Shown here: one piece after another, positions 48,276-63,621 of the stretch
How the letters are laid out: each line of letters begins with the position of its first letter
Numbering within the stretch: the first letter of the stretch is position 1
Origin: Candidatus Moraniibacteriota bacterium
GTDB taxonomy: Bacteria; Patescibacteriota; Minisyncoccia; Moranbacterales; GCA-2747515
Assembly: GCA_016699795.1 (NCBI GenBank)
Contig: CP065011.1
Span: 947,449-1,011,448 of the forward strand
Direction of reading: 5' to 3'
Length of the DNA: 64,000 nucleotides
Translations under genes and position numbers: made by a program
The notes under the pieces: model-generated
Seen by the model: the letters and a program-made list of their open reading frames with translations, nothing else
What the model was told of the DNA's origin: nothing
Database searches by the model: none

Positions 48276-51200
48276 ATGAAATTGGCATACGTCAACCCCA
48301 AATTAAAGTCTCAAGAAAAGGCAAATAAATATTATTTGCTTGTTTTTTATAGTATTTTTTGCTTGATAGGTTTTATTTTTCCAAACGAGAATATTTGGGC
48401 AGAAGATTCATGGGAAAACTATGAAGATTACCAAGTTATTGATAAGAATACCGTATGGAAAGAATCTTTTGTTCAAGAAAATGTGCTTAAACCTATTGTT
48501 ATAGTCAATGGTGCTATTGTCACTATAGAACCTGGTACAAAGGTCGAAGTGGGAAAACTTATTGTATACAATGGACGCATTTCGGCTCGTGGATCATTTG
48601 CGGAGCCTATAATTTTTACAAAAATGCCCACTCCTTGGGAGAATTTTTCAAAAGAGTACGACAAAGAATGTAATTATCTTTCTCTTCCTGAAGGAACGAT
48701 TGAGTTTCAAGAATCAGTATCCACAGAAGAAGACACTCCCTCTGTTTTTGAATACGTTATCTTCGAAGAAATGGGAAGGTTTCTTGAAAATATGGAACCT
48801 CATTGTTTTGATTCCCAAGATCCTTTTGTAGGAGATCTCACTTTCCCCCCTGTGATGTTCAAAGATCCAGCATTCCGTTTTTCTTTGGGACAAGTGGAAA
48901 TAAAAAATGCATCTTTTCGAAACAATTTTGTGGCAGATGTGCAAGTAAATATGGAAATTTCTGAGGAAGACCCTTCTTTTGATTATCTTCATATCAAAGA
49001 TACTGATTTCTATGGAAATGCTCGTGAAGTCGCTATTTCTTCTTCTTTGCTTTATGAAGATGAAAACCTCGATTTTTCTCAAAGAATCCTTCTTCAAAAT
49101 AATTGGTACGGATCATTTAATGGTCCCACCTGTTCAGAAAATTCAGAAGGAGATGGAAAAAAATTAGAAGGAAAATATGAGCTTGATGGATGGAAAGAGT
49201 TTGATGCTGGTCTAGAAAAGCGATGCCCAGACTGTCTTTCTAACATACTTTTTCTTCCAGGACTTAAAGCAAGTCGTTTATATACAAAAAATGAAGATTC
49301 ACAAGAAAATCGTCGATGGCTTCCGACTGTGGGGAGTGATGACTGGGAACAGCTTCTTCTGGATAAAAATGGCAAAAGTGAATCTTCGATATACACCAAA
49401 GATGTCTTAGATTCTGTGGTTACGGGGAATATATATGAATCATTTCTCGATAGATTGAGCAAATGGAAATCCGATGGAGATATTACCGATTATAAAGCAT
49501 TCGCTTATGATTGGCGTATGAATGTGGAAGATATTGTAAAAGAAGGTGTCTTTTATCCCAATGAAGTTACTCGTTTTCTTGTGGAGGATTGTATCACTCT
49601 CGCAAATTCTTCCAAAACAGGAAAGGTGACTATAATAGCACATTCCAATGGAGGACTTCTTGCAAAGGCACTTCTTTTGGAACTTCAAAAACAAGGAAGA
49701 GAAGATCTCGCTGAAACAGTTGTGTTCGTCGCTTCTCCTCAAATGGGAACACCACTTTCCATTCTTTCTCTTTTGTATGGGTACGATGAGCCCATACCAG
49801 GAATGATGACCCAAGAAGAGGCGAGGGCGCTTGCCGAAAATATGCCAGGAGCATATGGACTTTTGCCCACACGTGAATATTTTGATGCTGTAAAAGATCC
49901 TTTTATTCATTTTAATTCTGATCATACTCGATACAAAACATTCAAAAATATTTTTGGAAAGGATATTGAAACATACGACGAATTTACAGATTTTCTTTTA
50001 GGCACATCAGACAAACGCAAAGATCCTGATGCCGAAAAAATTGATGAAGAAAATGTTTTATCTCAAACACTTTTCAAACAAGCCAAAGAAACAGCGTATC
50101 GATTAGCCAATTGGAAACCGGGAGAAAATATTCGCATAGTGCAATTAGCTGGGTGGGGCTTGGATACCGTTTCGGGAATTTCCTACAATGAAGAAGAAAA
50201 AGGTCGTTGTTATGCTCTTTCAGGTGCTGTTCCTTCTTGTGTAGGAATAGGTGAATACAATCCTCTCTATGAACCTGTTTTCTCTTTTGATGGCGATGGT
50301 ATCGTCACCGATCCAAGTGCTCTTATGCTTGGACAATCGGACGATAGAGAACGCTATTGGGTAAATTTGTTTGAGTATGATGATGAAAATATCATAAATA
50401 GAAGACATAGGGATATCCTTGAAACTGATGCTGTTCAAGAATTTCTCGAACATATTATCGAGAAGAAAAACGAAGAGGATCTTCCAGAATTTATAACCCA
50501 AAAAAGACCAGAATTCAAAGATGGAACAACCTCTTCTCTTCGTATTACACTCCATTCTCCTTTAGATCTTCATATCTATGATAGCGAAGGTAGACATACT
50601 GGTTTGGAAACTTTGCGCGTAGATTCTCAAGATGTGCAAGTGATACAAGAATCTATTCCCAATACTTCATATTTTCAATTTGGAGAAAGAAAATATATAC
50701 ATATTCCCAAATCAAAACAGCCTATTCGTGTAGAACTTTTCGGTTATAAGGAGGGCTATTACACCCTTTCTTTGGAAGAAATAGAACATTCAGCAAAAGG
50801 AGAGAAATCGGTTGAAAAAATAGTGTATTCTCTGGTTCCAACTTCTTCTTCCACAAAAGCTTTTTTGGAGATCCCGTCATCAGGAGTATCGTCTGATATA
50901 ATACTTCGAAATGATTATGATGGTGATGATCCTGGACAAGAAAATATACTCTACCCCAAAAAAGAAGAGAATGTTTCTTCTCCAATTCTTTCTTCTCGAA
51001 AAGACGAAACTTCCATTCAAGATGAAGATCAAACCTCGACAAAAAACTCGAGAAAAAGCACGTCTATTTCTTCTATAAAAATAGCAAGCTCCCCACTCGA
51101 AAAACAACAAAGATTATTTGAAAAAATTTCTTCCAATCAAAACGAAGTAAATTATAAAAATCAAGAAATGATACCTACGTATTCAGAAGAAATATCTCAA

Positions 51201-51311
51201 AGTACTATTCCTTTTTCTTGGTATCGTTTTATGATATTTTGTTGTTTTTTGGGTATGGGTATTTTTGTGATAAAGATTTTCTTCTTTCGGCCATTGGAGA
51301 TAAAAACATAA
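48276..51311 (+). CDS. Large membrane-anchored secreted alpha/beta-hydrolase, LCAT/phospholipase-acyltransferase-like lipase (1011 aa) with a C-terminal TM
   Basis: N-terminal signal anchor; FAYDWRM (the YDWR motif of the LCAT/PDAT family) and nucleophile elbow IIAHSNGG; C-terminal hydrophobic helix WYRFMIFCCFLGMGIFVI. Confidence 0.55.
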   Translation: MKLAYVNPKLKSQEKANKYYLLVFYSIFCLIGFIFPNENIWAEDSWENYEDYQVIDKNTVWKESFVQENVLKPIVIVNGAIVTIEPGTKVEVGKLIVYNGRISARGSFAEPIIFTKMPTPWENFSKEYDKECNYLSLPEGTIEFQESVSTEEDTPSVFEYVIFEEMGRFLENMEPHCFDSQDPFVGDLTFPPVMFKDPAFRFSLGQVEIKNASFRNNFVADVQVNMEISEEDPSFDYLHIKDTDFYGNAREVAISSSLLYEDENLDFSQRILLQNNWYGSFNGPTCSENSEGDGKKLEGKYELDGWKEFDAGLEKRCPDCLSNILFLPGLKASRLYTKNEDSQENRRWLPTVGSDDWEQLLLDKNGKSESSIYTKDVLDSVVTGNIYESFLDRLSKWKSDGDITDYKAFAYDWRMNVEDIVKEGVFYPNEVTRFLVEDCITLANSSKTGKVTIIAHSNGGLLAKALLLELQKQGREDLAETVVFVASPQMGTPLSILSLLYGYDEPIPGMMTQEEARALAENMPGAYGLLPTREYFDAVKDPFIHFNSDHTRYKTFKNIFGKDIETYDEFTDFLLGTSDKRKDPDAEKIDEENVLSQTLFKQAKETAYRLANWKPGENIRIVQLAGWGLDTVSGISYNEEEKGRCYALSGAVPSCVGIGEYNPLYEPVFSFDGDGIVTDPSALMLGQSDDRERYWVNLFEYDDENIINRRHRDILETDAVQEFLEHIIEKKNEEDLPEFITQKRPEFKDGTTSSLRITLHSPLDLHIYDSEGRHTGLETLRVDSQDVQVIQESIPNTSYFQFGERKYIHIPKSKQPIRVELFGYKEGYYTLSLEEIEHSAKGEKSVEKIVYSLVPTSSSTKAFLEIPSSGVSSDIILRNDYDGDDPGQENILYPKKEENVSSPILSSRKDETSIQDEDQTSTKNSRKSTSISSIKIASSPLEKQQRLFEKISSNQNEVNYKNQEMIPTYSEEISQSTIPFSWYRFMIFCCFLGMGIFVIKIFFFRPLEIKT

Positions 51312-51354
51312 TTTTGATGTATACTAAAAATAAATTTGAATAAATCTATTTTTT

Positions 51355-51750
51355 ATGAAAAACAAAAAATTTAAAAAAATCGTTATTCTTGAAATTTTTA
51401 TTTTTTGCATTCTTTTGTTTTCTTTTATAGGTCCTTGTAATTTTAGTTTTGGAAAATGTATAGGAGGAGATAGTATTCTTATAACAAGAACATTATTCCA
51501 CATAGCACTCTCCCTCCTTATAGTTTCACCCTTCCTTTTTTTTCTCCGAGATGAAATGTTTTCAAAATGGATTCGTTTAAGTGTTTTTTGGTTTGGCATC
51601 TCGACAATTCTTATTATGATAGCACCAGTTTATTGGGGAGGATGGATGTCTTTTGGACCAACGAAAGAACTTGTGTCGCTCTGGTCGGGAATACTTTTTC
51701 TTTTGGTAAATATCTTCTTTATTTTTCATTACAGAAAAGGCTCACGTTAA
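51355..51750 (+). CDS. Hypothetical small membrane protein (4 TM)
   Basis: 131 aa, hydrophobic helices, Lys-rich N-terminus. Confidence 0.45.
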   Translation: MKNKKFKKIVILEIFIFCILLFSFIGPCNFSFGKCIGGDSILITRTLFHIALSLLIVSPFLFFLRDEMFSKWIRLSVFWFGISTILIMIAPVYWGGWMSFGPTKELVSLWSGILFLLVNIFFIFHYRKGSR

Positions 51751-51805
51751 ATTTAAAATACCATTACCAATCTTTCCCTACGAGAAAAGTTCTATCTAAA
51801 AAAAG

Positions 51806-51845
51806 AAAAACGGCTCACAAAATTTTGTGTAACCGTTTTTTATTC
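51806..51845. terminator. Bidirectional terminator (aacggct-cacaaaa/ttttgtg-taaccgtt) between convergent genes
   Basis: Hairpin with inner perfect palindrome cacaaaattttgtg, flanked by A-run and T-run. Confidence 0.5.
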
Positions 51846-51860
51846 TCATGAAAGATGTTC

Positions 51861-52331
51861 TTATTTAGGAGAAGAATTCTCGGATTTTTCGAGAATCTCA
51901 TCATAAAGAGGAACGAGTTGCAAAAGTCTTTCTTTTTGAGCAAGGAGGTTATTCTCTTGAAGACGGTTTGCAGAAAACTTTTCTTTGACCGCTTCTAAGA
52001 TTTTTTTATTAGAAGCCTCGTTTACAGAGTAGATATACTTAAACGGACTGTATTCTGATACTGAAGCGTGTTGTTGGGATGCTCTCATCCACATTCTTTC
52101 TGCTTCATCATAATCTCGCATAAGTATAATCGACAAATCTTTTGTCTTTTTAATTTCTCTGTCGATCTCTCGGAGACATTCATAAAGATACTCGGGAAAC
52201 CGCTCAGAAATCATCGACTCTGTGCTATCTAGCTTGAAATCTTCAATGCAAGAAATTTTTTCTTCGTAAGAATAGGCATTACCAAAAAGAAAAAGTAGAA
52301 CAAAAAGGGACAAAAACACTGTTTTTTTCAT
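51861..52331 (-). CDS. Hypothetical secreted protein (signal peptide)
   Basis: MKKTVFLSLFVLLFLFGNAYS signal peptide; acidic/helical body; no known motif. Confidence 0.5.
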   Translation of the reverse strand: MKKTVFLSLFVLLFLFGNAYSYEEKISCIEDFKLDSTESMISERFPEYLYECLREIDREIKKTKDLSIILMRDYDEAERMWMRASQQHASVSEYSPFKYIYSVNEASNKKILEAVKEKFSANRLQENNLLAQKERLLQLVPLYDEILEKSENSSPK

Positions 52332-52416
52332 CGAAATCTCCTTACTGGGGATGGAAAGGTACTCTGTGTGATATAAACCAAAAACGTTATTTTTGCAAGC
52401 TTTCTTTTCAAAAATA

Positions 52417-52444
52417 TTGCTATTTCTTTATTTTTGTGTTATAC
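52417..52444 (+). promoter_or_regulatory. Sigma70-like promoter of paralog 1 (-35 TTGCTA, 16-nt spacer ending TGTG, -10 TTATAC)
   Basis: Same architecture recurs upstream of all four paralogs; tttttgtgttata is shared with the paralog 4 promoter. Confidence 0.4.
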
Positions 52445-52503
52445 AGTTTGAGGAAAAAGGTCCTTTTTGTTCACAGTAGTGCCTTATCAGGAGGCAGAAA
52501 AAT

Positions 52504-52806
52504 ATGCTCACAAAACTCAGAAACCTTTTATGGGATTTGGGAATATGCTCTTATGGGGGAGAAGATCCCACTACAGCAAAACAGAGAAATTTTTCTCGGA
52601 CGCTCTCTGTCGTTGCTCAAGATAGAGAAGAAAGGGGAGATTTGGAAGGAGCGTATAAAGCGTATCGTAAAAGAATTTATATCTGCCCTGGTCATTACTC
52701 TTTCCGTCGAGACATGCTTCTTGCTTGGGAAGAAGCGCATCACAGGAAAGAGCAAGATATAATGCTTCTCGCTCATGAAAAGAGTGATGCTACTCGGCAA
52801 GAGTAA
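52504..52806 (+). CDS. Small TPR-like protein, paralog 1 of a four-member tandem family
   Basis: SD aggagg 8 nt upstream; conserved core TLSVVAQDREERGDLEGAYKAYRKRIYICP shared with 52960, 53433 and 53887. Confidence 0.55.
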   Translation: MLTKLRNLLWDLGICSYGGEDPTTAKQRNFSRTLSVVAQDREERGDLEGAYKAYRKRIYICPGHYSFRRDMLLAWEEAHHRKEQDIMLLAHEKSDATRQE

Positions 52807-52815
52807 AATTTTTAT

Positions 52816-52848
52816 AACGGCTTTCTTACACAAAGAGGGCCGTTTTTT
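52816..52848 (+). terminator. Rho-independent terminator (aacggc...gccgtt plus T6)
   Basis: Hairpin followed by tttttt directly after the paralog 1 stop. Confidence 0.45.
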
Positions 52849-52879
52849 AATTAAGCCGAAAAATAAAAAAAATATTCTC

Positions 52880-52907
52880 TTGTGAAAAATACGCTAATGT
52901 GTTAATC
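52880..52907 (+). promoter_or_regulatory. Sigma70-like promoter of paralog 2 (-35 TTGTGA, 16-nt spacer ending TGTG, -10 TTAATC)
   Basis: Matches the shared architecture; an alternative -10 TATAAT lies at 52909. Confidence 0.35.
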
Positions 52908-52959
52908 CTATAATAAAATAAGTTCTTTCTTTACACATAACTTTGATAGGAGGTAGAAG

Positions 52960-53289
52960 ATGTATCAAGGTTTCAGAGGTCATTTTAGGCGTAAAGATTT
53001 TTTTCAGAGCGAAGAAGAGATCGCTCGAGAGAATCTCATCTTCAAAGCTTTTCTTACTATCGGCTGTGATAGGAAAGAAAATAATGATGAACCTGGGGCT
53101 CATAAATGCTTTTATCGAGTTATAAATATACGTCCTCAAGAAGGAGATTTTCGGAGGACAATAGCAAGAATATGGCTTGCAACAAAGGCAAAAAAAGTTG
53201 CCTATGCCGGAGTAAAAGATTCTTGTCATTTGGAACAAGAAGAAGAACCATTCCCTTCATTTGCAAGCTATCTCAAGCAACCTTCCTGA
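52960..53289 (+). CDS. Small TPR-like protein, paralog 2
   Basis: SD aggagg; core ARENLIFKAFLTIGCDRKENNDEPGAHKCFYRVINIRPQEGDFRR. Confidence 0.5.
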   Translation: MYQGFRGHFRRKDFFQSEEEIARENLIFKAFLTIGCDRKENNDEPGAHKCFYRVINIRPQEGDFRRTIARIWLATKAKKVAYAGVKDSCHLEQEEEPFPSFASYLKQPS

Positions 53290-53302
53290 GATAGGTCCCT
53301 TA

Positions 53303-53334
53303 CAGCCACAAAAAATTGTGTGCTGTTTTTTTTG
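53303..53334 (+). terminator. Rho-independent terminator (cagccacaa...ttgtgtgctg plus T9)
   Basis: Hairpin plus ttttttttt. Confidence 0.5.
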
Positions 53335-53357
53335 GAAGAGGAAATCTTTTAGATCTC

Positions 53358-53385
53358 TTGCCATTTTTATTTTATTATGTTATTA
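53358..53385 (+). promoter_or_regulatory. Sigma70-like promoter of paralog 3 (-35 TTGCCA, 16-nt spacer ending TG, -10 TTATTA)
   Basis: cttgccat...ttat(g)ttatta is shared with the paralog 4 promoter. Confidence 0.4.
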
Positions 53386-53432
53386 CTTTTTTGGGCCATC
53401 GAGTTCTTTTTCAAAAAAAGAGGAGTTATAGT

Positions 53433-53678
53433 ATGAACATGCTTTTTGGATTTCCATTCCCTTCTTTTTTTATGGGGGGAGAGAAGTTAGTATTAGAGAA
53501 TGTAATGCTTTCAAATCTCTCTTTTATAGCTTCTAGTAAGCAACTTCTTGGCGACTACGCCGGAGCCGATCAATGCTATCGTGAGGCGGTTCACATACGG
53601 CCTCAGAATACATTTTTCCGTCAGCGTATGATGGAAAATTGGGCGAAGATGAATCATCATCAGCCGAAAACGGCATAA
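53433..53678 (+). CDS. Small TPR-like protein, paralog 3 (start at the internal ATG with SD agaggag)
   Basis: Core LENVMLSNLSFIASSKQLLGDYAGADQCYREAVHIRPQNTFFRQRMMENW; the longer ORF from 53316 lacks an RBS. Confidence 0.5.
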   Translation: MNMLFGFPFPSFFMGGEKLVLENVMLSNLSFIASSKQLLGDYAGADQCYREAVHIRPQNTFFRQRMMENWAKMNHHQPKTA

Positions 53679-53683
53679 ACATA

Positions 53684-53718
53684 AAGCGATCACACAAGGA
53701 TGTGTATCGCTTTTTTAT
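53684..53718 (+). terminator. Rho-independent terminator (agcgat(c)acaca-agga-tgtgtatcgct plus T6)
   Basis: About 11-bp stem followed by tttttt. Confidence 0.55.
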
Positions 53719-53798
53719 TTTTAGATAAATTCAAACAAAGTTGAAGAGATAAGTATCCTTTTTCAAAGAGATGAATAGCGGATATTGTTTTAAAAGAC

Positions 53799-53826
53799 TT
53801 GCCATATATATATTTTTGTGTTATAG
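53799..53826 (+). promoter_or_regulatory. Sigma70-like promoter of paralog 4 (-35 TTGCCA, 16-nt spacer ending TGTG, -10 TTATAG)
   Basis: tttttgtgttata is shared with the paralog 1 promoter. Confidence 0.4.
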
Positions 53827-53886
53827 AGAATATATTCCCAAAGGGAATATGAGTCCTTTCATAAACTCGAAAAGAGGAGCTGAGAA

Positions 53887-54255
53887 ATGAACATTCTTCA
53901 TTATGTTGCGTATCCTTTCGTGGCATTTTTTGAGGGCTTCTATGAGCTTTGGACTGGGGGAGAAAGACTTGCCCGAGAGAATCTTCTTCTTTCCACACTC
54001 TCTGTCGTTGCCCAAGATCGTGAATCTTTTGGCGACCTTGCTGGAGCGGGTAAATGCTATACACAGGCACATAAAATCTACCCCGAAGGAAAATTTTTTC
54101 ATAAGATGATGCTTGAAAATTCTAAAAAAATACAAGAAAAAGAGCATATCCAGGAAAAAAGATCAGAACACACGACGAATTTAAGGATTCTGAATTCTTT
54201 TCTGAGGCCCCCTCAAGAAGACGTGTTCTACGGGCAACTTCTCAAGAAGATGTAG
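53887..54255 (+). CDS. Small TPR-like protein, paralog 4
   Basis: SD aggag; core ARENLLLSTLSVVAQDRESFGDLAGAGKCYTQAHKIYPEGKFFHKMMLENS. Confidence 0.55.
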   Translation: MNILHYVAYPFVAFFEGFYELWTGGERLARENLLLSTLSVVAQDRESFGDLAGAGKCYTQAHKIYPEGKFFHKMMLENSKKIQEKEHIQEKRSEHTTNLRILNSFLRPPQEDVFYGQLLKKM

Positions 54256-54353
54256 TATTTATTCTTCTCGAGTTATACCGAGAATGAAAGACTCTTTTCA
54301 TTTGCGAACCCTTGAGAAAACGAATACCCAAAATTCGTTTCAAATTATTATAA

Positions 54354-54387
54354 AAACGGCCATACAATTGTATGTGCCGTTTTTTCT
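54354..54387 (+). terminator. Rho-independent terminator (aacggc-catacaa/ttgtatg-gccgtt plus T6)
   Basis: Hairpin plus T-run; an additional perfect 9-bp hairpin gaaacgaat...attcgtttc lies at 54317-54340. Confidence 0.5.
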
Positions 54388-54813: not shown

Positions 54814-55137
54814 ATGATACGTCGTCTATTGGAAGTATTTGTATTCTCTCTCGTTTTCTTACTTGTAGGAAGTATTCTAGGATTTTTTTTGGTACCGATT
54901 GAGACTTCTTCTGAATCAGATAAAGAATCAAAATGTATAACATTTGTTTACAATGAAAGTGGTCAAATGGAGGGGATTTTTATTCGAAATGATATAAAAA
55001 CGCGAGCACAGGAAATAGCTCACACATTTTCTGATGTCTTGTATGAAAAAGCCACACTTTATAATCCAAAAGGGGATATGGTTCCTGATTCGATCGATGA
55101 CAATATTAAATTATATATTGAAAAAATAATTCTCTAG
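54814..55137 (+). CDS. Hypothetical small membrane-anchored protein
   Basis: 107 aa, N-terminal TM LEVFVFSLVFLLVGSILGFFLV. Confidence 0.45.
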   Translation: MIRRLLEVFVFSLVFLLVGSILGFFLVPIETSSESDKESKCITFVYNESGQMEGIFIRNDIKTRAQEIAHTFSDVLYEKATLYNPKGDMVPDSIDDNIKLYIEKIIL

Positions 55138-55213: not shown

Positions 55214-56203
55214 ATGCTTTCCCATAGAGAAAAAATCCTTGTTTATATTCAAAAACGAGAACAAGCCACCGTTGTGGATTTGGAAAACGCGTTCGATATC
55301 GAAAAGCAGATAATGTTTCAACATTTAAAATCTTTGATAGAAGAGGGATTGATACAAGAAATTGGTTTAGCTCCAAGAATTATTTATGTACCTCTCCAAG
55401 AAAGAGAAGGAAATGTTTCTATTGGTGATATTGAAAATATTTCTGAAAGAGAAAGAGAAATTATAGAAGAAAATTTTCTTCTCATAACACCAGGAGGAAA
55501 TCGTTTAGAAGGTGTTATGGGTTTTTCAAAATGGTCTCAATATCAAGAATATTCTTTCTCTCAAAAAGCAAAAGAATACGCTGATATGTACGAAAAACAC
55601 GAAGAACTCAAACACTATGGTTTTATAGAAGGAATAGAGAAATTCCACCAAACATTTGGAGCAACTCCTTCTCTTGATGCTGTTTTTTATAAAGACTTTT
55701 ATACATGGGAAATATTTGGCAAAACAAAATTAGGTCAACTCCTTTTTTATGCCAAACAAAGTCAGGATAAGCACATAATAAGAGAAATAATTCAGATAGT
55801 AGCAGAATCTTCTTTGTACAAAATACTTCAGGAATATTTCGTAGATGCGGTTTGTTTTATTCCTCCTACTGTACGACGAACAGTCCAGCTTATGGACGAG
55901 TTAAAAAAAGAACTCGCATTGCCCTTGCCAGAAATACGAATTCAAAAAATTACAGGTCCGATTCGAGTACCCCAAAAAACACTCTCCAAATTAGAAGATC
56001 GGCTCCTCAACGCTCGAACAAGTTTTTTCGTTTCAGAACGAAGATTATTTCATACCGTACTTCTTATAGATGACGCACTTGGTTCGGGAGCGACTTTTTT
56101 TGAGGTAGCTAAAAAACTCAAAAAACAAGGAATAGCCAAAAAAGTTATTGGTTTGGCAATAACTGGGAGTTTGAAGGAATTCGATGTTATTCGCGAAATC
56201 TAA
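55214..56203 (+). CDS. Winged-helix DNA-binding domain fused to a type I phosphoribosyltransferase (PRTase) domain (PurR/ComF-like architecture)
   Basis: N-terminal HTH-like ...REQATVVDLENAFDIEKQIMFQHLKSLIEEGLIQE; C-terminal PRPP-binding motif VLLIDDALGSGATF. Confidence 0.55.
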   Translation: MLSHREKILVYIQKREQATVVDLENAFDIEKQIMFQHLKSLIEEGLIQEIGLAPRIIYVPLQEREGNVSIGDIENISEREREIIEENFLLITPGGNRLEGVMGFSKWSQYQEYSFSQKAKEYADMYEKHEELKHYGFIEGIEKFHQTFGATPSLDAVFYKDFYTWEIFGKTKLGQLLFYAKQSQDKHIIREIIQIVAESSLYKILQEYFVDAVCFIPPTVRRTVQLMDELKKELALPLPEIRIQKITGPIRVPQKTLSKLEDRLLNARTSFFVSERRLFHTVLLIDDALGSGATFFEVAKKLKKQGIAKKVIGLAITGSLKEFDVIREI

Positions 56204-56239
56204 ATTTTTTCTAAACTATCCGAAAATTTAAAAGTATTT

Positions 56240-56854
56240 TTATGAAACACTTATTTGAGTAAGAAATTCCTTTATAGTTTCATTAGAAGTTTTAAATTCT
56301 GGAAGATAGGTTACAGACTCTGTATAATCAATATCTTCAAAGTAACAAAGTTGTTCACGAAGTATTTTTTCATTAATTTCATTTCCAAATATTTTTTGAG
56401 CTTTTGCTATTATCTCATAAAGGGAATGAAAGTTTCGAAGAATAAAATACATATCAACATAGTCTTTCCATTTAGCTCGACGTCCCAATGCATAGAGTTT
56501 CATAGCACCGAGAGTCAAAAGATCAGGAAGATGTATACCATGTTGAAATTCGTTTAAAAATTCAATTGGATATGGGTAATAAAGGAATGTGATTTGAACA
56601 TTTTGAGCAAGAAATGTAAGTTCATTTTTATCATTTCGATACATTCTTTCTATAGGAGAAAATTTTTTGAATTTTGTAAGAATCTTTTCACCATTAAAAT
56701 CTTCGTTATGAGTAAAAAGATCAAAATCAATAGATTCTCTATGTCCTATATGGAGAGCAATAGCTGTTCCTCCGACCAAACCAAAATCAGGAGAAAATTT
56801 TCCAAGAAAAGGAAGAAGTGATGATTGTTTATTGTTGAGGATTTCTTGGTGCAT
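56240..56854 (-). CDS. AbiEii/DUF1814-like nucleotidyltransferase (type IV TA toxin family)
   Basis: FGLVGGTAIALHIGHRESIDFDLFT matches the NTase-fold motif hGG.A....HR.S.D.D typical of AbiEii toxins; 204 aa. Confidence 0.6.
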   Translation of the reverse strand: MHQEILNNKQSSLLPFLGKFSPDFGLVGGTAIALHIGHRESIDFDLFTHNEDFNGEKILTKFKKFSPIERMYRNDKNELTFLAQNVQITFLYYPYPIEFLNEFQHGIHLPDLLTLGAMKLYALGRRAKWKDYVDMYFILRNFHSLYEIIAKAQKIFGNEINEKILREQLCYFEDIDYTESVTYLPEFKTSNETIKEFLTQISVS

Positions 56855-57155
56855 GAGCTTTAAAATAAAGAGTGAAAAAATGTTTTGTTTTCAGATGATA
56901 ATTAGATCGTTCGTGCTCAATTTGTGAGTGAAAAATCGAGGAAATTTTTTCTATGCCTAAAATAGAAATGAGCTTTTGCACATCATCCCAATTTCCATAA
57001 TTAAGAGTAGCTTCTACAATAGATTCGACTGAGAGCTGTCCTGGATTTTTTGTCCACCAGACAAAATGAGATCTTTGTATGATAAATGTTTGAATATCCA
57101 TAGAGAAATGATACCATTTTTGAATAACTTTGTCGAGTAAAAAAGAACAATCCAA
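56829..57155 (-). CDS. Small ORF overlapping the 5' end of the AbiEii-like gene, a candidate cognate partner/antitoxin
   Basis: 108-aa ORF immediately upstream on the same strand with a 26-nt overlap; no recognisable domain and much shorter than typical AbiEi. Confidence 0.3.
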   Translation of the reverse strand: MDCSFLLDKVIQKWYHFSMDIQTFIIQRSHFVWWTKNPGQLSVESIVEATLNYGNWDDVQKLISILGIEKISSIFHSQIEHERSNYHLKTKHFFTLYFKAHAPRNPQQ

Positions 57156-57224: not shown

Positions 57225-58172
57225 ATGAACAAAAAAATTCTCATAACGGGTGGAGCAGGATTTATCGGTTCTCATCTTATAAAACGACTTTTACATGAGG
57301 GTCATGAGGTTCTCTGTGTTGATAATTTTTTCACGGGAAATAAAGATAATATATTACCCTTTCTCGACAATCCTCGCTTCGAACTTATGCGTCATGACGT
57401 AACATTTCCCCTTTATGTAGAAGTGGATGAAATTTACAATCTTGCATGTCCCGCATCTCCCATTCATTATCAATTTGATCCTGTACAAACGACCAAAACT
57501 TCCGTACATGGTGCTATTAATATGTTAGGACTTGCCAAGAGAACTCAGGCGAAAATTCTACAAGCATCCACAAGTGAAGTGTACGGAGATCCTGAGGTGC
57601 ACCCTCAAGACGAAACCTATTGGGGGAGGGTAAATCCTGTTGGTATTCGATCTTGTTATGATGAAGGAAAACGTTGTGCGGAGACACTTTTTTTCGATTA
57701 TTTTCGTCAGCATCATCTTCCTATACGAGTAATAAGAATTTTCAATACATACGGACCCAATATGCATCCCCGAGATGGAAGAGTTGTTTCAAACTTTATC
57801 GTACAAGCATTAAAAAATGAAGATATAACCATTTATGGAAATGGGGAACAAACGAGAAGTTTTCAATACGTGGATGATCTTATAGAAGGTATGGTGCGAA
57901 TGATGGAAAATAAAAAAGATTTCACTGGTCCTGTAAATATAGGGAATCCGAAAGAATTTACTATGAAACAACTTGCTGAAATAATTCTTCGGCTTATTCC
58001 TGAAAGTAAAAGTACTCTTGTATATAAACCTCTCCCTCAAGATGATCCTAGACAACGAAAACCCGATATAACCCTTGCGAAAAAAATGCTCGACTGGGAA
58101 CCAAAAATAGATCTTGAAAAAGGCCTTATACAAACCATTGAATATTTTCGAGGAAAAATAAAAGAATTGTAA
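57225..58172 (+). CDS. uxs: UDP-glucuronate decarboxylase / UDP-xylose synthase (SDR NAD-dependent epimerase/dehydratase)
   Basis: [10 protein letters not shown] Rossmann motif; YDEGKR catalytic YxxxK region; overall match to the UXS1-type sequence (…VDNFFTGNK…NPRFEL..HDV…). Confidence 0.88.
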
Positions 58173-58310
58173 ACGTGCAAAAATATCTCAAGTACCACAT
58201 CACCTTACTCAAACAAAATAAAAAGAGTGTTTTTTCTCTAAGTCAGATACTCTAATTTTAGAGAGAAAAATTTAAAAAAGAATTGATGAAAAATTAGCTT
58301 TACGTAAGCC

Positions 58311-58661
58311 TCAAATTTTTTCATTTAATTGATTCAAAAGAGAAGAAACAGATTTTTTGAGGTTAGGAAGATCTTTTTTGGCCGTTTCCCAAAGTATTTT
58401 TCGATCAACTTTTGCATAATCATGAACAAGAAAGTTTCTCATGCCGATCATGCTTTTATAAGGAATTTGCTCTGGATATTTTTCACGAAATTCTTGTGAA
58501 AGACGATTTGTGGCTTCACCCATAATGCCAAGTTGTCTTGCTATAGCATCTGTAAGTATTTCATCTTGACTATAATGAACAAAATCAACATTGTTCAAAT
58601 AACGTTCAACTTTTTCTATAGCTTGTAAAATATCGTATAGATGAAGTTTGTTTCTATCCAT
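58311..58661 (-). CDS. hepT: HepT (DUF86/HEPN) toxin of a HEPN-MNT pair
   Basis: HEPN Rx4-6H motif RNFLVHDY; 116 aa. Confidence 0.8.
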   Translation of the reverse strand: MDRNKLHLYDILQAIEKVERYLNNVDFVHYSQDEILTDAIARQLGIMGEATNRLSQEFREKYPEQIPYKSMIGMRNFLVHDYAKVDRKILWETAKKDLPNLKKSVSSLLNQLNEKI

Positions 58662-58956
58662 AAATTTTTTGAGCTTTAGAAAGTATGTTTTCCTTTATGT
58701 TCTCATTAAGAGCTTCTGGTGTAAGAAGATCTATTTTTTTTCCAATATTTTTTTCCATTTTACTCTGGATTTCAACGAGATCAAAAAAGCTTATCGAACT
58801 TTTGGGTTCAAATACGAAAAGAAGGTCGATATCGCTTTCATCTTTTGGACTTCCGTATGCATATGATCCAAAAAGAAAAACCTCCCGAATATCTTTTCGA
58901 TATGGAGAGTTCTTCACCTCTTTCTGAATAGTAGTAATGATATGAGATTGTGTCAT
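58654..58956 (-). CDS. mntA: MntA minimal nucleotidyltransferase (antitoxin of the HEPN-MNT pair)
   Basis: GSYAYGSPKDESDIDLLFVF NTase motif (GS...D.D); upstream of and overlapping hepT by 8 nt. Confidence 0.8.
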   Translation of the reverse strand: MTQSHIITTIQKEVKNSPYRKDIREVFLFGSYAYGSPKDESDIDLLFVFEPKSSISFFDLVEIQSKMEKNIGKKIDLLTPEALNENIKENILSKAQKIYG

Positions 58957-58990
58957 AAATTTTTCTTCTCTTTCACTTTACAGAAAAACA
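58935..58990. repeat. Direct repeat copy 1 (about 56 bp) covering the mntA start codon, RBS and promoter region
   Basis: taatgatatgagattgtgtcataaatttttcttctctttcactttacagaaaaa recurs at 59856 with 3 mismatches. Confidence 0.8.
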
Positions 58991-59175
58991 CAAGGAAAGT
59001 CCAATGAATTTTGTATATCGCAATTTTGGATTTTTTCCTTCACACAAAAAACGCGAAGTTTGTGCCTACTCATTCTCTTATGAAAGAAATGTATCACCGT
59101 ATGCATATAAAAGAGTGAAGGTCTGGCCAACCTATGTGCGATTCATACATAGTAATAAAGTTAAAATAATGTCCT

Positions 59176-59751
59176 ATGAAGTTTGATACAAAGAGTATTT
59201 TTGCTGGTTCGATTCTTACCGTTCTTGCCGGTACCGTCCTCGGAATAAGTGCGACACAAGCAGATGCTTTCTTTTCGAAAGGGGAGAAAAGTGAATCTCG
59301 AGAAGTAGTGCGAAAAGCTATCGAATCTGGGGATTACAATGCATTTCTCAAGGCTCGAGAAAATGTCTCTCGTCCTATGCACAAAGATGTCAGCGAAGAA
59401 GAATTTTTGAAGATACAGAAAATGCATACGCTCAAAAATGAGGGGAAGTTTGAAGAAGCTGACGCTTTGAGAAAAGAGCTTGGATTTCCTGAGCGAGATG
59501 GTCGTGGAGGTATGGGTAAGATGAAATCTTCTCAAGACAGACAGGCTACCTACAACGCCATGGAATCCGGAGATTTCAATGCATGGAAAGAAGTGATGGG
59601 AGATCGTCCTATAGCACAAACCATGACAGAAGAAAATTTTCAGAAACTTCGCCAAGCGCATGAAATGAAAAAGAATGGAAATCATGAGGGAGCACGTGCT
59701 CTAATGGAAGAACTTGGTATGGGTAAAGCTGGTAATGGATACCAAAGATAG
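59176..59751 (+). CDS. Secreted protein with two ~65-aa internal repeats
   Basis: Signal peptide ...VLGISATQADA; repeat units ESGDYNAFLKARE...FLKIQKMHTLKNEGKFEEADALRKELG and ESGDFNAWKEVMG...FQKLRQAHEMKKNGNHEGARALMEELG. Confidence 0.55.
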   Translation: MKFDTKSIFAGSILTVLAGTVLGISATQADAFFSKGEKSESREVVRKAIESGDYNAFLKARENVSRPMHKDVSEEEFLKIQKMHTLKNEGKFEEADALRKELGFPERDGRGGMGKMKSSQDRQATYNAMESGDFNAWKEVMGDRPIAQTMTEENFQKLRQAHEMKKNGNHEGARALMEELGMGKAGNGYQR

Positions 59752-59855
59752 AATCATCGCAATCCAAAAAATTGTGAGTTATCAGAAGACGTATCGCCAT
59801 CCGAATTTTGTGTTCGGGTGGCGAATATCGTTTTATCCTTCCTTCCCTGTATGTA

Positions 59856-59911
59856 TAATGATATGAGATTGTGTCATAAATTTTTCCTCTCTTTCACTTC
59901 ACAAAAAAATG
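59856..59911. repeat. Direct repeat copy 2, with a truncated mntA 5' remnant (MTQSHIIIHTGKEG*) on the minus strand
   Basis: Near-identical to 58935-58990; the remnant minus-strand ORF is about 59833-59877. Confidence 0.8.
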
Positions 59912-59959
59912 CAAAGAAATTCCCTTAAAGGTGTATACTTAAAAAAATAATAAAAATAT

Positions 59960-61894
59960 ATGAAAAAAATACACTGGTGGAGAATACTATGCGTTAGCGT
60001 TTTCTTTTTCTTTGGGATGCCTTTACTTGTTTGGGCCAAGTCATATACATATGAAAGTATTGATGTTGATATTGATATAAACAAAGACGCAACGATCCTT
60101 GTAAGAGAAAAGCAGGTATTTCAATTTTCTGGAGAATTTCATAAAGGCTATCGAGAAATTATCCTCAATGGAACAGACGCTATTCGAGATATAGCTGTCT
60201 ATGATGAGAGAGGGGTAAATCTTTCGTACCAAAAAAATCTTTCGCAAGAATACATACCTGGACTTGAAGGAAACTATAACTACCAAAAATCTGGAGGTTT
60301 TATGAAAATTTGGTGGTTTTTTGATGCACAAGATGAAACAAAAACATTCACTCTAGAATATACCGTCGTTGGCGCCCTTTCTTTTTTCGATGATAAAGAC
60401 GAATTGTATTGGAATATTCTTACCGATTATGATGTCGCTATTGCTTCTTCTACGGTACAAATCTCTCTTCCTGAAGAAAGTGAAATGAACACACTAAAAA
60501 TAAAAGAATACCTTCAAGGGGATGAAAGTTCTTTCTCAGAAATTCTCAATGAAAAAACAGCTCTTGCCAGTGCAACACAGCTTCAATCGGGGGCAGATTT
60601 TACCGTAGCTTTCGGATTTCCTCGGGGAATCATTGATCGTGGAGCTTATTGGGAAAGTCTCTTTTCTTTATACTGGGGATATATTCTCGGTGTTCTTATT
60701 TGGCTTATTACTCTTATTTTCTGTCTTGGATATTGGTATATGAGTGAAAAATACAATAAAGGACGAGGGACGATCATCGCCGAATACGAGCCTCCTCATC
60801 ATTTACCTCCAGCAATAGGAGAAGTTATTATGAAAGAGAAAATTTCTTCTAAGACATGGGCGTCTACCATTATAGATCTCGCTGTTCGTGGACATGTAAA
60901 AATAGAAGAAGAACCTGTACAAGCATGGATGAAATATCTTATCTTTCTTCCAGGAATAATCGGTGCTTTTTTCGTGGGGCAAATTATTTTTGTCATGATG
61001 CCTACAGAAGATGTTTTTCTGAAAATCTTGGCATTGTGTGTGTTTATAGGTATAGGAGTTATTTCTTTTACAAAAGATAAGAATAAGGGGAGATTTGAGA
61101 AAAAAGAATATAAACTTTTTCTCATAAAAGATAACGCGAAAGACATATTACGCCCATTTGAAAAAGAATTTCTCTCGGTGCTTTTTTCTGGAAGGGCTGG
61201 TGTGTTTTCAACTCGAGAAATTAAGAAAGAAGATGAACTTAAGCGACAAATGATGTATAGAAAATTTCAAGCTCTCCAAAAAAGTTTTTTTGATGAAGTG
61301 GCTCAGCTCGGTTTTCATAACCATTCCCTTAAGAAAGAATCATATGGAAAAACAGGACTTATATTTTTCTTTTTCGGTCTTTTTTTCCTCTCTTCCTTTA
61401 TAGGTTTTTGGGGATCGTGGCATTTCTTGATAGCTACTCTTTTGGGGGCATCTGCTCTTATTTCATACTTCATTTGGTTTGAAGTGAAACTCACGCCAGA
61501 AGGAAATGAAGAAAAAGAGAAATGGTTAGGATTTAAAGAATTTCTCTACAAAACAGAACGGTATCGTGTCCAAGAACTTACACCTGACATGTTTTATACA
61601 CTTCTTCCATACGCTATGATTTTTGGTATAGAGAGGCAATGGGCGAAACGTTTCGAAGGTATCGTGGTGAACAATCCTGATTGGCATACATCCCCAACAA
61701 TGTCTACCTCGGGGAGCTCTTCTTTTGTTTCGTCTGGATCTGTAGGAGCTTTTTCCGCGGGGGCGTTCTCCGCATCACTTAGCTCAAGTTTTTCATCAGC
61801 TTTTGCAAGTTCATCAGGCTCTTCAGGTGGAGCTTCTGGTGGGGGAGGATCAGCAGGTGGTGGAGGTGGAGGAGGTGGCGGTGGCGCTAGTTAA
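59960..61894 (+). CDS. DUF2207-like membrane protein with a C-terminal Gly/Ser-rich tail
   Basis: Signal peptide, about 230-aa extracytoplasmic domain, TM segments, C-terminal SSGSSGGASGGGGSAGGGGGGGGGGAS encoded by a GGN repeat tract (about 61810-61890). Confidence 0.5.
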   Translation: MKKIHWWRILCVSVFFFFGMPLLVWAKSYTYESIDVDIDINKDATILVREKQVFQFSGEFHKGYREIILNGTDAIRDIAVYDERGVNLSYQKNLSQEYIPGLEGNYNYQKSGGFMKIWWFFDAQDETKTFTLEYTVVGALSFFDDKDELYWNILTDYDVAIASSTVQISLPEESEMNTLKIKEYLQGDESSFSEILNEKTALASATQLQSGADFTVAFGFPRGIIDRGAYWESLFSLYWGYILGVLIWLITLIFCLGYWYMSEKYNKGRGTIIAEYEPPHHLPPAIGEVIMKEKISSKTWASTIIDLAVRGHVKIEEEPVQAWMKYLIFLPGIIGAFFVGQIIFVMMPTEDVFLKILALCVFIGIGVISFTKDKNKGRFEKKEYKLFLIKDNAKDILRPFEKEFLSVLFSGRAGVFSTREIKKEDELKRQMMYRKFQALQKSFFDEVAQLGFHNHSLKKESYGKTGLIFFFFGLFFLSSFIGFWGSWHFLIATLLGASALISYFIWFEVKLTPEGNEEKEKWLGFKEFLYKTERYRVQELTPDMFYTLLPYAMIFGIERQWAKRFEGIVVNNPDWHTSPTMSTSGSSSFVSSGSVGAFSAGAFSASLSSSFSSAFASSSGSSGGASGGGGSAGGGGGGGGGGAS

Positions 61895-62006
61895 AAATTA
61901 TATTTCTATTTTTCCTCTGATTTCATTCGAGAGATCACCCTCTTCATTTTTCCGTTATTTCGAGTAAGTGAGGCGAACCGAGAAATCTCTCCGAATTTGA
62001 AAAACT

Positions 62007-62049
62007 AAGAAAATCCCTCTCTACCTCTCCCTTTTCCTAAGGGAGAGAA
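62007..62049. repeat. 43-bp direct repeat copy A with embedded hairpin ctctccc-N9-gggagag
   Basis: aagaaaatccctctctacctctcccttttcctaagggagagaa; the second copy at 63339-63380 differs at one base. Confidence 0.8.
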
Positions 62050-62149
62050 GTAGAGTGAAAAATATTGCATTACTGACCAAAATAGTACATATTTACGTCA
62101 GTATACTAACCAGAAAAATGAGATTTGAATTTTTACATGCAAAGAAAGT

Positions 62150-62983
62150 ATGGATCGCAATTTTTTAATTACTAAAGAATACCAATCTTTTATAGAAAAG
62201 ATAAAAGAGGGTGTACAACGAGCGAGAAATAAAGCCATTCGGAGTATAAATAGTGAGCTTATTAGCCTTTATTATTTTATCGGAAAGCAAATTGTAGAAA
62301 AACAAAAAAAATCAAATTGGGGTGAAGATTTTATTGGACAGATTGAAGCTGATTTGAAAAGAATTTTTCCCGAATTAAGAGGTTTTTCTCGTCGAAATCT
62401 CAATTATATGAGAAGTTTGTATATTTTCTTTGGAAAAAATGCAAAAATGCCACAGCTTGTGGCACAAATTCCTTGGGGACATATCCGGCTTATTTTAGAT
62501 AAAATTAGAGATAAAAAAGAAGCTGAATTTTATATACAAAAGACTATTGAAAATTCTTGGTCTCGGGTTATTCTTGATCATCAGATTTCTTTGAATCTGT
62601 ATCAACGACAGGGTACGCTTGTAAGTAATTTTGATTCTACGATTAATGATCGAAATATAACTCTTATCAAAGAATCTTTTAAGGAGAATTATGTTTTGGA
62701 TTTTTTGAACTTGGAAGAATCCGCCAAAGAGCGTGATCTTGAGAATGCTCTTATTAAGAATATTACAAACTTTGTTCTTGAATTGGGTAAAGGATTCGCC
62801 TTTGTCGGCAAACAACATAAACTGGTCTTCTCTCCCTTTGCCAAAAGAGTATTACGAGTTTTTCCCTCCCTCTTCTCTCCCTTTGCCAAAAGGGAGTACC
62901 CGAGTCATCGAGGGGGAGGGATTTGTATTCCAGACATCATACTTAAGTCCCAAGAAAATCCACAAAAGTATGCGTCAATATGA
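62150..62983 (+). pseudogene. DUF1016 (YhcG-like) PD-(D/E)XK-family nuclease, C-terminal catalytic region replaced by repeat-derived sequence
   Basis: The N-terminal region matches the DUF1016 pattern (...NSELISLYYFIGKQI...WGEDFIGQIEADLKRIFPELRGFSRRNLNYMRSLY... GKGFAFVGKQHKL). It then runs into FSPFAKR-FSPFAKR, encoded by a duplicated ctctccctttgccaaaag element, and terminates without the (D/E)xK core. Confidence 0.5.
62827..62925. repeat. Cluster of short REP/MITE-like hairpin repeats inside the DUF1016 gene (2x cttctctccctttgccaaaag(g); inverted ccctccctc / gagggggaggg)
   Basis: The core ctctcccttt(g/t)cc(a/t)aa(a/g)gggag is related to the hairpin in the 43-bp flanking repeats. Confidence 0.6.
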
Positions 62984-63332
62984 TTCAAATCTCAATCAAA
63001 TAGCCAGAAAACTGAGAAAATCTATGACAGAGGCAGAGGTAAGAATGTGGCAAAGATTGAGAAAAAAACAAGTTTGTAATATTCAATTTTTTAGACAAAA
63101 AATTATTGGAAATTATATCGTTGATTTTATCGCACCATTAATACATCTTGTTATTGAAATAGACGGAGGGGGACATTTCGAAAAAGGACAGCTCATAAAG
63201 AAAGATCGTGTTCGTGAAGTTTATTTAAAGCAAAAAAATCTCTCGATTCTTCGATTTACAAATACAGAAGTGATGCAAAATATAGATGGAGTTTTTATAA
63301 GTATTTATAAGTTTATTGAGAGTAGGAATTAA
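62970..63332 (+). CDS. DUF559 (Vsr-like) endonuclease-domain protein
   Basis: MTEAEVRMWQRLRKKQ...FRRQKIIGNYIVDFIAPLIHLVIEIDGGGH...LSILRFTNTEV matches the DUF559 pattern (LW..LR....G.KFRRQ..IG.YI.DF.C....L.IE.DG..H...VLRF.N.EV); the start is the in-frame ATG at 62970. Confidence 0.65.
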   Translation: MRQYDSNLNQIARKLRKSMTEAEVRMWQRLRKKQVCNIQFFRQKIIGNYIVDFIAPLIHLVIEIDGGGHFEKGQLIKKDRVREVYLKQKNLSILRFTNTEVMQNIDGVFISIYKFIESRN

Positions 63333-63338
63333 ACTCCA

Positions 63339-63380
63339 AGAAAATCCCTCTCCACCTCTCCCTTTTCCTAAGGGAGAGAA
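63339..63380. repeat. 43-bp direct repeat copy B
   Basis: aagaaaatccctctccacctctcccttttcctaagggagagaa. Confidence 0.8.
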
Positions 63381-63621
63381 AAATACACCTTCTTATTATC
63401 CCTGTATCATTTTCTGTCCAGCCAAAGGCTGATCAACGTCTTCGCCTTGCCATCCTTGCGGAGGTGGGGAGTCAGCTTAATCAAAAATTCCTCTCGAGAA
63501 AATTAGCCCTCTATGAGACAAAAGCTAGATATTCTTAGGAATGTATTGTGCTTTTTCTTTCAAATTTTGACATCCCTTAGTATATTACATATATTCTTTA
63601 ATAAGAGCCAAATATATATTT

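Follow-up and report, generated by a model that had tools for sequence, protein, structure and literature searches.

A toxin-antitoxin-bearing region beside a tRNA(CAT) pair in a Candidatus Moraniibacteriota chromosome is probably a native, lineage-conserved mosaic rather than a block inserted at the tRNA

Does a run of secreted and membrane proteins of unknown function, toxin-antitoxin pairs and nuclease genes lying beside two tRNA genes represent an island that was integrated there? This question is raised by a locus on a Candidatus Moraniibacteriota chromosome, namely the region at 48.1-63.4 kb (locus tags IPN70_04620-04705) of a 64-kb window, this last term designating the whole stretch of DNA that was analysed. 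A sequence-only reading had presented the region as an accessory/defence island adjoining a tRNA(CAT) pair, and all the modules that it named were recovered where it had placed them. The LCAT-like protein, the SDR enzyme and the winged helix-turn-helix (wHTH) phosphoribosyltransferase (PRTase) of the region are 100% identical to IPN70_04620, to a protein annotated as "SDR family oxidoreductase" and to IPN70_04660, respectively, and 10 more region proteins correspond to QQS61139-QQS61155. As argued below, the region is, with a probability of about 0.7, a native, lineage-conserved mosaic and not a block inserted at the tRNA, because its geometry relative to the tRNAs, its composition, a tRNA junction kept in a relative and the gene-by-gene distribution of its members all speak against a tRNA island.

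The evidence comes from family scans (Pfam, NCBIfam, PADLOC and PHROGs) of the main open reading frames (ORFs) in 48.2-63.7 kb, i.e., 18 gene calls and 2 alternative ORFs, and from comparison with contigs of relatives, named L081-L085, L093, L095/L096, L097, L098, L099 and L100/L101. Among these, L097 is a 4.8-kb contig (ENA ERZ28619739, scaffold_3770) and L093 is GCA_036681025.1, JAXDEL010684745.1. The features of the tRNA junction and of the left third of the region are the following:

47949-48023, minus strand: tRNA-Met(CAT), elongator-like (ARAGORN; Rfam tRNA 65.7 bits), with its 3' end toward lower coordinates
48039-48113, minus strand: tRNA(CAT) (ARAGORN, Rfam), whose 5' part matches L097
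48276-51311, plus strand: LCAT-like alpha/beta-hydrolase surface protein of 1011 aa, IPN70_04620 (Pfam LCAT, E 1.4e-16)
51355-51750, plus strand: small multi-pass membrane protein, conserved partner of the LCAT-like protein, with a homolog directly 3' of LCAT in relatives
51861-52331, minus strand: 156-aa secreted protein of unknown function with a signal-peptide-like N-terminus and a 33% homolog at the same place and on the same strand in L097
52504-52806, 52960-53289, 53433-53678 and 53887-54255, plus strand: four small TPR-like paralogs, recognised by alignment

The tRNA at 48039-48113 is one that we take to resemble the bacterial initiator tRNA-fMet, by its GCGGGG...CCCCGCAA acceptor stem and its CTCATAACC anticodon loop. 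Integrase-mediated islands lie at tRNA 3' ends with part of the tRNA duplicated, and classic attachment (att) sites overlap the tRNA 3' end. Here, the LCAT-like gene is divergent from the tRNAs, and the region from 48276 onwards abuts the tRNA 5' ends. Comparison of the tRNA region with the 64-kb window by blastn-short returned chance matches of at most 15 nt only, and thus no tRNA-fragment repeat. In the scanned ORFs of 48.2-63.7 kb, no match was obtained to any integrase, transposase, recombinase, phage or conjugation family with Pfam, NCBIfam, PADLOC or PHROGs, which bears out the absence of an integrase already remarked by the sequence-only reading. With the region on the 5' side of the tRNAs, without an integrase and without an att-like tRNA repeat in the window, the proposed integration at the tRNA is not upheld.

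A relative keeps the same junction. The first 62 nt of L097 share 96.8% identity with the 5' part of the tRNA at 48039-48113 and hold the same divergent position with respect to LCAT. Order and orientation in this contig are as here: tRNA-Met, LCAT (58.7% aa identity), membrane protein (66.7%), a minus-strand 148-aa protein (33%) and paralog 1 (54%, at the syntenic place). This conserved junction covers the first 4.7 kb and was seen in one relative. Given this retained gene order, which the sequence-only reading had itself named as an outcome that would refute it, the accessory status that had been attributed to the first third of the region does not stand. A scan of genome contigs with HisRS gave a best match of 63% identity, without synteny and without a tRNA-Met pair, and a metagenome scan with LCAT gave 8 loci, all at 39% identity or less and none with a tRNA.

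The conservation of this left part is also visible gene by gene. The LCAT-like protein has 644 homologs, whose taxon-bearing source names are mostly Moranbacteria, and its nearest relative among 5.8 billion proteins (58% identity) is the one encoded on L097. A homolog of the small membrane protein lies directly downstream of LCAT in L097 (66.7%), in L081-84 (47%) and in L085 (55%), so that the two proteins form a conserved pair. As for the four TPR-like proteins, their relationship is mutually significant (pairwise tblastn E 1e-4 to 1e-17), and no fifth copy was found by tblastn.

The composition of the region was assessed with the 64-kb window as sole reference, by comparing 18 region genes with 32 upstream genes. 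Mann-Whitney tests gave p = 0.47 for GC content, p = 0.09 for GC content at third codon positions (GC3), which is marginally higher in the region, and p = 0.98 for synonymous-codon fit. Tetranucleotide and dinucleotide z values range from -0.2 to -1.0 across 48-64 kb, and neither GC nor GC skew shows any appreciable shift at 48 kb. The only atypical stretches in the window are giant surface-protein genes (1-4 kb and 26-34 kb, z +2 to +3). The GC-skew and codon-usage check to which the idea of a foreign origin lent itself was thus run and spoke against it, GC, GC3, codon fit and di-/tetranucleotide signature being all typical of the window. The switch from housekeeping to secreted and membrane content that had been described at the tRNAs turns out to be soft: such content does follow the tRNAs, and the upstream 48 kb also carry large surface proteins of unknown function (143-3451, 14744-17799 and 26106-33992).

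Two side observations concern the surroundings of the tRNAs. Rfam also matched 47970-48085 on the minus strand to the Y RNA-like family YrlA, at 32 bits and hence below the gathering score of 69; this match runs across both tRNAs and is most likely a mere effect of tRNA-like structure. To the left of the tRNAs, the genes for HisRS, a 263-aa unknown protein and a GNAT acetyltransferase (43781-47628) have a GC content of 0.41-0.45 and a GC3 of 0.31-0.35, the window means being 0.36 and 0.24. Any compositional oddity near the tRNA 3' ends would therefore be on this HisRS/GNAT side.

Further to the right, two genes that the sequence-only reading had left out, coding for a UDP-glucuronate decarboxylase and a DUF2207 membrane protein, appear as the fixed points of an otherwise changeable neighbourhood, and lineage-conserved genes make up about half of the 15 kb. 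The decarboxylase, the DUF2207 gene and the toxin-antitoxin modules around the former are:

56240-56854, minus strand: AbiEii-family nucleotidyltransferase, putative toxin (Pfam AbiEii PF08843, 41.3 bits against a cutoff of 22.5; PADLOC AbiEii)
56829-57155, minus strand: small AbiEii partner, putative antitoxin of 90-108 aa (likely start at 57101, giving 90 aa), overlapping AbiEii by 26 nt
57225-58172, plus strand: UDP-glucuronate decarboxylase (UXS; SDR family), a core-type enzyme (Pfam GDP_Man_Dehyd/Epimerase, E 1e-48 to 1e-52)
58311-58661, minus strand: predicted HepT RNase-type toxin of a type VII toxin-antitoxin system (Pfam HepT-like, 92.3 bits)
58654-58956, minus strand: predicted MntA nucleotidyltransferase antitoxin (Pfam Polbeta, 56 bits, and NTP_transf_2; PADLOC PDC-S09, E 7e-20)
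59960-61894, plus strand: DUF2207 membrane protein (Pfam DUF2207 and DUF2207_C)

Hundreds of proteins share 80-88% identity with the decarboxylase, including some from named Patescibacteria lineages and one from Thiorhodovibrio. L093 carries, within 13 kb, the DUF2207 protein (81% aa and 82.6% nt identity), the decarboxylase (86%), from which DUF2207 is 8.4 kb distant there, and the AbiEii pair (63% and 57%), in an order that differs from the one seen here and together with two further AbiEii modules, an AAA_14/DUF4143 ATPase and an NYN nuclease. In L095/L096, the decarboxylase is followed by AAA_14/DUF4143 and small ORFs, and in L081 it stands without toxin-antitoxin neighbours, 7 kb from LCAT. 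Because these relatives differ in content and order near the decarboxylase, 56.2-63.4 kb is a toxin-antitoxin-rich, rearrangement-prone neighbourhood around two conserved genes.

The DUF2207 gene also shares its leader with an unrelated gene. The 33 nt before its start (window 59928-59990) show 94% identity to the leader of a small membrane-protein gene in L099 (11280-11345), and the first codons of the two genes are alike (MKKIHWWRI here, MKKTYWWRI in L099). The idea that L099 would have LCAT, the membrane protein and DUF2207 contiguous, thereby making 51.8-59.9 kb an insertion, was discarded, the L099 gene being a homolog of the membrane protein with the 33-nt leader alone in common with DUF2207.

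As regards the first toxin-antitoxin module, the nucleotidyltransferase has its 63% homolog near UXS in L093, where the 57% homolog of its partner lies directly upstream of it. The partner gives a weak DUF6922 match (E 1.3e-3) and no match to the AbiEi family in the profile scans. The pair therefore resembles the type IV AbiE system (AbiEi/AbiEii) in having an AbiEii-family nucleotidyltransferase after an overlapping small gene, an arrangement kept in a relative, and departs from it by this partner, which at about 90 aa and with its weak DUF6922 match does not correspond to the AbiEi antitoxin, made of a wHTH and a C-terminal domain. The second module resembles the type VII MntA/HepT system: the HepT protein carries MRNFLVHDY, in which RNFLVHDY fits the Rx4HxY motif, GSYAYGSPKDESDID of MntA fits GSx10DxD, and the antitoxin gene comes first, mntA being upstream of hepT with an 8-nt overlap (58654-58661). 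Yet, because the NCBIfam equivalog scores (47 and 49) fall below the 60-bit cutoff, the pair is a divergent member of this type.

These modules, together with the nuclease genes and the decayed or selfish pieces described below, all fall within the last ~7 kb (56.2-63.4 kb), with a content and an order that differ from those of L093, and to this extent the reading of the region as a gathering of defence-type modules is supported. PADLOC detected weak AbiEii matches, PDC-S09 (MntA) and the C-terminal half of PsyrT, and no complete multi-gene system in the region. The concept of defence islands, reportedly put forward by Makarova et al. in 2011, refers to defence and toxin-antitoxin genes that cluster together in variable regions. 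The present locus would match it by the presence of an AbiEii-type pair, HepT/MntA, a YhcG remnant and DUF559 within 7 kb, and by the different module set that a relative has there. It diverges in that it holds small two-gene modules and relics only, with no restriction-modification, CRISPR, helicase or ATPase systems, and in that its modules, whose anti-phage role is putative, are interleaved with conserved envelope genes.

Between the paralogs and the toxin-antitoxin modules lie two further genes:

54814-55137, plus strand: 107-aa orphan with an N-terminal hydrophobic segment (ORF only; no family match in the scans)
55214-56203, plus strand: wHTH and ComF-like PRTase of 329 aa, IPN70_04660 (Pfam, PADLOC, NCBIfam, AlphaFold2 (AF2)/Foldseek)

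The second of these had been counted among the defence-type modules. The protein is related to the C-terminal half of RqlH/PsyrT, since it can be aligned over its full length with that part of the PADLOC PsyrT profile (positions 367-683/689, E 6e-16); RqlH combines a RecQ-like helicase with a PRTase at the C-terminus that is genotoxic (PMC4670107). The window protein differs from RqlH/PsyrT in several respects: no helicase domain was matched in it with Pfam, no conserved RqlI/PsyrA-like neighbour accompanies it, there being no PsyrA match in the scanned ORFs (PADLOC) and the neighbours differing among the window, L098 and L100, and its contexts are housekeeping ones beside GlyRS. Indeed, in L098 (6325-7326) and L100 (10001-11044; L100/101) the gene lies just downstream of GlyRS or a few kb from it, other neighbours in these contigs being PyrE/PyrF, RecO, TGT, RsmI, CysRS and Obg. 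Besides, the protein has 1151 homologs of uniform length (320-347 aa) at 42-55% identity, and each source that names a taxon is a Patescibacteria lineage. These homologs and their housekeeping contexts (GlyRS, PyrE/PyrF, RecO, CysRS) go against a defence role. The family, of about 325 aa, has many invariant residues.

In terms of fold, the N-terminus is a winged helix (Pfam MarR_2/HTH_5; helices 4-43 and a hairpin in the model), the Pfam Pribosyltran match (E 6e-5) is below cutoff, TIGR00201 comF gives E 1.9e-4, and the phosphoribosyl pyrophosphate (PRPP) loop motif LLIDDALGSGAT is intact. The AF2 model has a predicted local distance difference test (pLDDT) score of 88, and Foldseek searches with it returned weak matches only (E ~1e-3), to APRT, H. 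pylori ComF 7p0h (E 9e-4), PyrR and ShosT. A sequence search of the PDB with the family profile gave weak winged-helix matches only and no solved structure. The protein thus recalls the ComF(C) competence PRTases by a predicted PRTase fold matching H. pylori ComF and by its PRPP-binding loop, and differs from them by an N-terminal wHTH in place of the ComF zinc finger. Because the helicase and the partner gene are lacking and the Foldseek matches are weak, it is treated here as a conserved wHTH/ComF-like PRTase rather than as a defence gene; its function might be that of a regulator sensing PRPP or of a DNA-uptake factor akin to ComF. Two other ideas were abandoned. The combination of a PRTase with a wHTH is reminiscent of the effectors of type III retrons (PADLOC PRTase_III-A, E 1e-4). 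As no reverse transcriptase family was matched among the 48-64 kb ORFs scanned against Pfam, and as the family is housekeeping-embedded, a retron was dropped. A 107-aa wHTH protein following an aminoacyl-tRNA synthetase gene in L081 was considered as a truncated relative of the PRTase, and no similarity was found.

The gap between mntA and DUF2207 holds what would be an inserted cassette, flanked by direct repeats:

58935-59002, no strand assigned: 68-nt direct repeat copy 1, comprising codons 1-7 of mntA and the promoter region upstream of this gene
59176-59751, plus strand: 191-aa secreted protein with a signal peptide and an internal two-fold repeat, forming a cassette between the 68-nt repeats
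59856-59923, no strand assigned: 68-nt direct repeat copy 2 (90% identity), a relic of the mntA 5' end (first 7 codons) just upstream of DUF2207

The internal repeat of the 191-aa protein is recognisable from ESGDYNAF... and ESGDFNAW..., and Pfam, NCBIfam and PHROGs gave no family for this protein. Proteins of ~92% identity to it are encoded on at least 12 other metagenomic contigs, whereas for 8 other region proteins that were looked up no copy as close was found, bar one 100%-identical frameshifted AbiEii copy. Since such close copies exist elsewhere while most neighbour genes are without close relatives, the gene may have spread recently. From the second repeat copy being a relic of the mntA 5' end, we infer that the gene entered the former mntA-DUF2207 intergenic region with a 68-nt duplication.

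At the right-hand end, downstream of DUF2207, a broken nuclease gene and an intact endonuclease gene alternate with non-coding elements:

62000-62049, plus strand: terminator-like hairpin element copy 1 (AAGAAAATCC and a CT/GA hairpin), a 50-nt repeat downstream of DUF2207
62044-62137, plus strand: non-coding element of ~95 nt with a 7-bp inverted repeat (TACTGAC-N20-GTCAGTA), upstream of YhcG
62150 to ~62820, plus strand: DUF1016/YhcG PD-(D/E)XK nuclease gene, a pseudogene (Pfam, PHROGs)
62826-62961, plus strand: composite CT/GA-rich hairpin repeat element at the YhcG break, with an internal 22-nt repeat (fold z = -2.4)
62970-63332, plus strand: intact DUF559 (Vsr-like) endonuclease-domain gene of 120 aa (Pfam DUF559, 103 bits)
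63331-63380, plus strand: terminator-like hairpin element copy 2, a 50-nt repeat with 92% identity to copy 1

The disruption of the DUF1016 nuclease gene is confirmed: it is truncated after ~222 codons, with DUF1016_N complete, YhcG_C represented by positions 2-55/157 and phrog_22762 by positions 6-222/343, and no remainder of it was found downstream of the break. As to its being bounded, with DUF559, by direct repeats, the 50-nt repeats do flank the two genes, and what they would signify has to be revised. Because the same type of element (AAGAAAATCC and hairpin) also comes right after UXS and after the AAA_14 gene in L095/L096, the repeats are members of a dispersed terminator-like hairpin family and not att sites. 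The composite element at the break has 91.5% identity over 71 nt to intergenic DNA of L095 (3053-3173) and L096 (3043-3163), and it forms with the AAGAAAATCC hairpin unit a dispersed family of the lineage, of the REP/MITE-like kind (repetitive extragenic palindrome or miniature inverted-repeat transposable element) or of the terminator kind. The composite element was not found in viral contigs, and viral and phage searches gave nothing for the hairpin element or for the 191-aa protein. The ~95-nt element has 85% identity to L093 7972-8064, located there upstream of an AbiEi-like antitoxin gene, and looks like a common promoter/operator module. In scans of a more general kind, Rfam at a permissive threshold returned for 47.6-64 kb the two tRNAs and sub-threshold noise, and nothing else, and promoter and terminator consensus scans gave counts equal to the shuffled expectation.

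The DUF559 protein has a 93% identity counterpart on a Joint Genome Institute (JGI) contig, which, like the close copies of the 191-aa protein, may point to a recent spread. Its gene is enclosed between two copies ending in CCAAGAAAATCC (62950-62961 and 63336-63347); in L095/L096, CCAAGAAAATCC runs directly into the last hairpin, the element being uninterrupted. One might read these data jointly and consider that the DUF559 gene and the composite CT/GA hairpin would make up an autonomous small mobile element of Moranbacteria, with gene-less MITE-like derivatives lying after genes in relatives, and, more broadly, that the decarboxylase/DUF2207 neighbourhood would be a lineage-specific locus swapping cassettes through common short promoter/terminator elements and without an integrase. 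This joint reading is quite improbable.

The reading that we favour, a native mosaic, builds on the observed gene identities, synteny with relatives, repeats and typical composition. In the corresponding model, the backbone would comprise the divergent tRNA-Met/LCAT junction, the membrane partner, the secreted protein, the TPR-like protein, the wHTH/ComF-like PRTase, the decarboxylase and DUF2207, and this set of envelope and sugar-nucleotide genes would have been inherited vertically and reshuffled, the small TPR-like protein having expanded here to four tandem paralogs. Small selfish modules would have gathered piecemeal in the gaps around the decarboxylase and DUF2207. Among them, the AbiEii nucleotidyltransferase with its short partner and the canonical MntA/HepT pair would have entered as modules, the insertion of a 0.9-kb cassette with the 191-aa gene would have duplicated the 68 nt of the mntA-DUF2207 intergenic region, and the hairpin element with the DUF559 gene would have truncated the YhcG gene. 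Such modules would have arrived singly, by recombination without a site-specific integrase, and addiction or tolerance would maintain them in an envelope region that is dispensable.

Several points weigh against this reading. The conserved tRNA junction was seen in one short contig alone (L097), and no tRNA stands beside LCAT in L099 (LCAT 45%) or in L081 (LCAT 42%). No relative could be aligned over 52.8-56.2 kb, i.e., over paralogs 2-4, the 107-aa ORF and the position of the PRTase, and the order around the decarboxylase not being that of L093 means that part of the region is variable. The right-hand boundary of the region is past the end of the window (64 kb). Finally, in the data at hand, native DNA and an old, ameliorated acquisition common to the clade look alike.

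Three other explanations have to be set against the native mosaic; the likelihoods attached to them are independent of each other. The first, an accessory/defence island of horizontal origin that entered at the tRNA-Met pair and whose integrase has since been lost, is very improbable. Like tRNA-associated genomic islands, the region adjoins two tRNA genes and holds toxin-antitoxin and nuclease modules, a pseudogene and repeats, and its decarboxylase neighbourhood is not the one of L093. Unlike them, it lies on the tRNA 5' side, with no integrase, phage or conjugation family among the scanned ORFs, no att duplication of the tRNA 3' end and no compositional deviation; it contains core-type genes, and the retention of the tRNA/LCAT junction and of the next three genes in L097 contradicts such an integration for 48.1-52.8 kb. 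An island of ancient date, which would have entered before the lineage diverged from those of L097 and L093 and would since have been ameliorated, fixed in the clade and internally rearranged, is less readily dismissed and would predict a typical composition, a gene order kept in a relative and an order that differs in more distant relatives, as is observed. However, the members of the region are separately widespread in Moranbacteria- or Patescibacteria-named sources and in different housekeeping contexts; a single block therefore fits less well than vertical descent with rearrangement. Nor is any relic of mobility genes present, and an origin of this type is improbable.

The last explanation overlaps with the native mosaic and bears on the way in which the modules were gathered: the surroundings of the decarboxylase and DUF2207 would be a lineage-specific hotspot, with an organised exchange of cassettes via common short promoter/terminator elements instead of a random accumulation. 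L093, in which three AbiEii modules and further modules likewise surround the decarboxylase, is in favour of it, as are the 95-nt upstream element placed before different genes in two genomes, the hairpin elements in common with L095/L096 and the 33-nt leader in common with an unrelated gene in L099. Nevertheless, the pattern is seen in two or three relatives only, the L081 decarboxylase has no toxin-antitoxin modules alongside, the elements in common could be ordinary promoter/terminator types of the lineage, and no recombinase is present, so that an organised exchange, while having more to commend it than the two islands, is still unlikely.

Elsewhere in the window, a few observations were made in passing. 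Far above the proposed island, 26106-33992 is the most compositionally deviant part of the window, being occupied by a single 2628-aa ORF with a GC content of 0.41 (against ~0.36), a strongly negative GC skew and a tetranucleotide z of up to +2.9. The gene at 143-3451, coding for a 1102-aa protein with an InlB B-repeat-type domain, is of atypical composition as well (z ~+2.1). Because it encloses two antisense ORFs (1342-1755 and 1879-2526) with 75% mutual identity, it probably contains a long internal tandem repeat. Paralogous HlyD / ABC ATPase / MacB-FtsX efflux operons are present at 6569-11087 and 36971-40051 (ATPases 50% and permeases 33-37% identical), and a [FeFe]-hydrogenase large-subunit-type protein with ferredoxin-like domains is encoded at 21935-23638, among housekeeping genes.

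In the light of these data, a run of unknown secreted proteins and toxin-antitoxin pairs beside a tRNA in a genome of the candidate phyla radiation is not to be read as an integrated island. Such content belongs to the normal chromosome fabric of these organisms, which makes the finding an ordinary one, of use mainly for correct annotation. For annotators, it brings out the wHTH-PRTase as a Patescibacteria-wide, housekeeping-embedded relative of ComF and of the C-terminal half of RqlH, the conserved pair made of the LCAT-like protein and its membrane partner, and a dispersed family of hairpin elements in the lineage.

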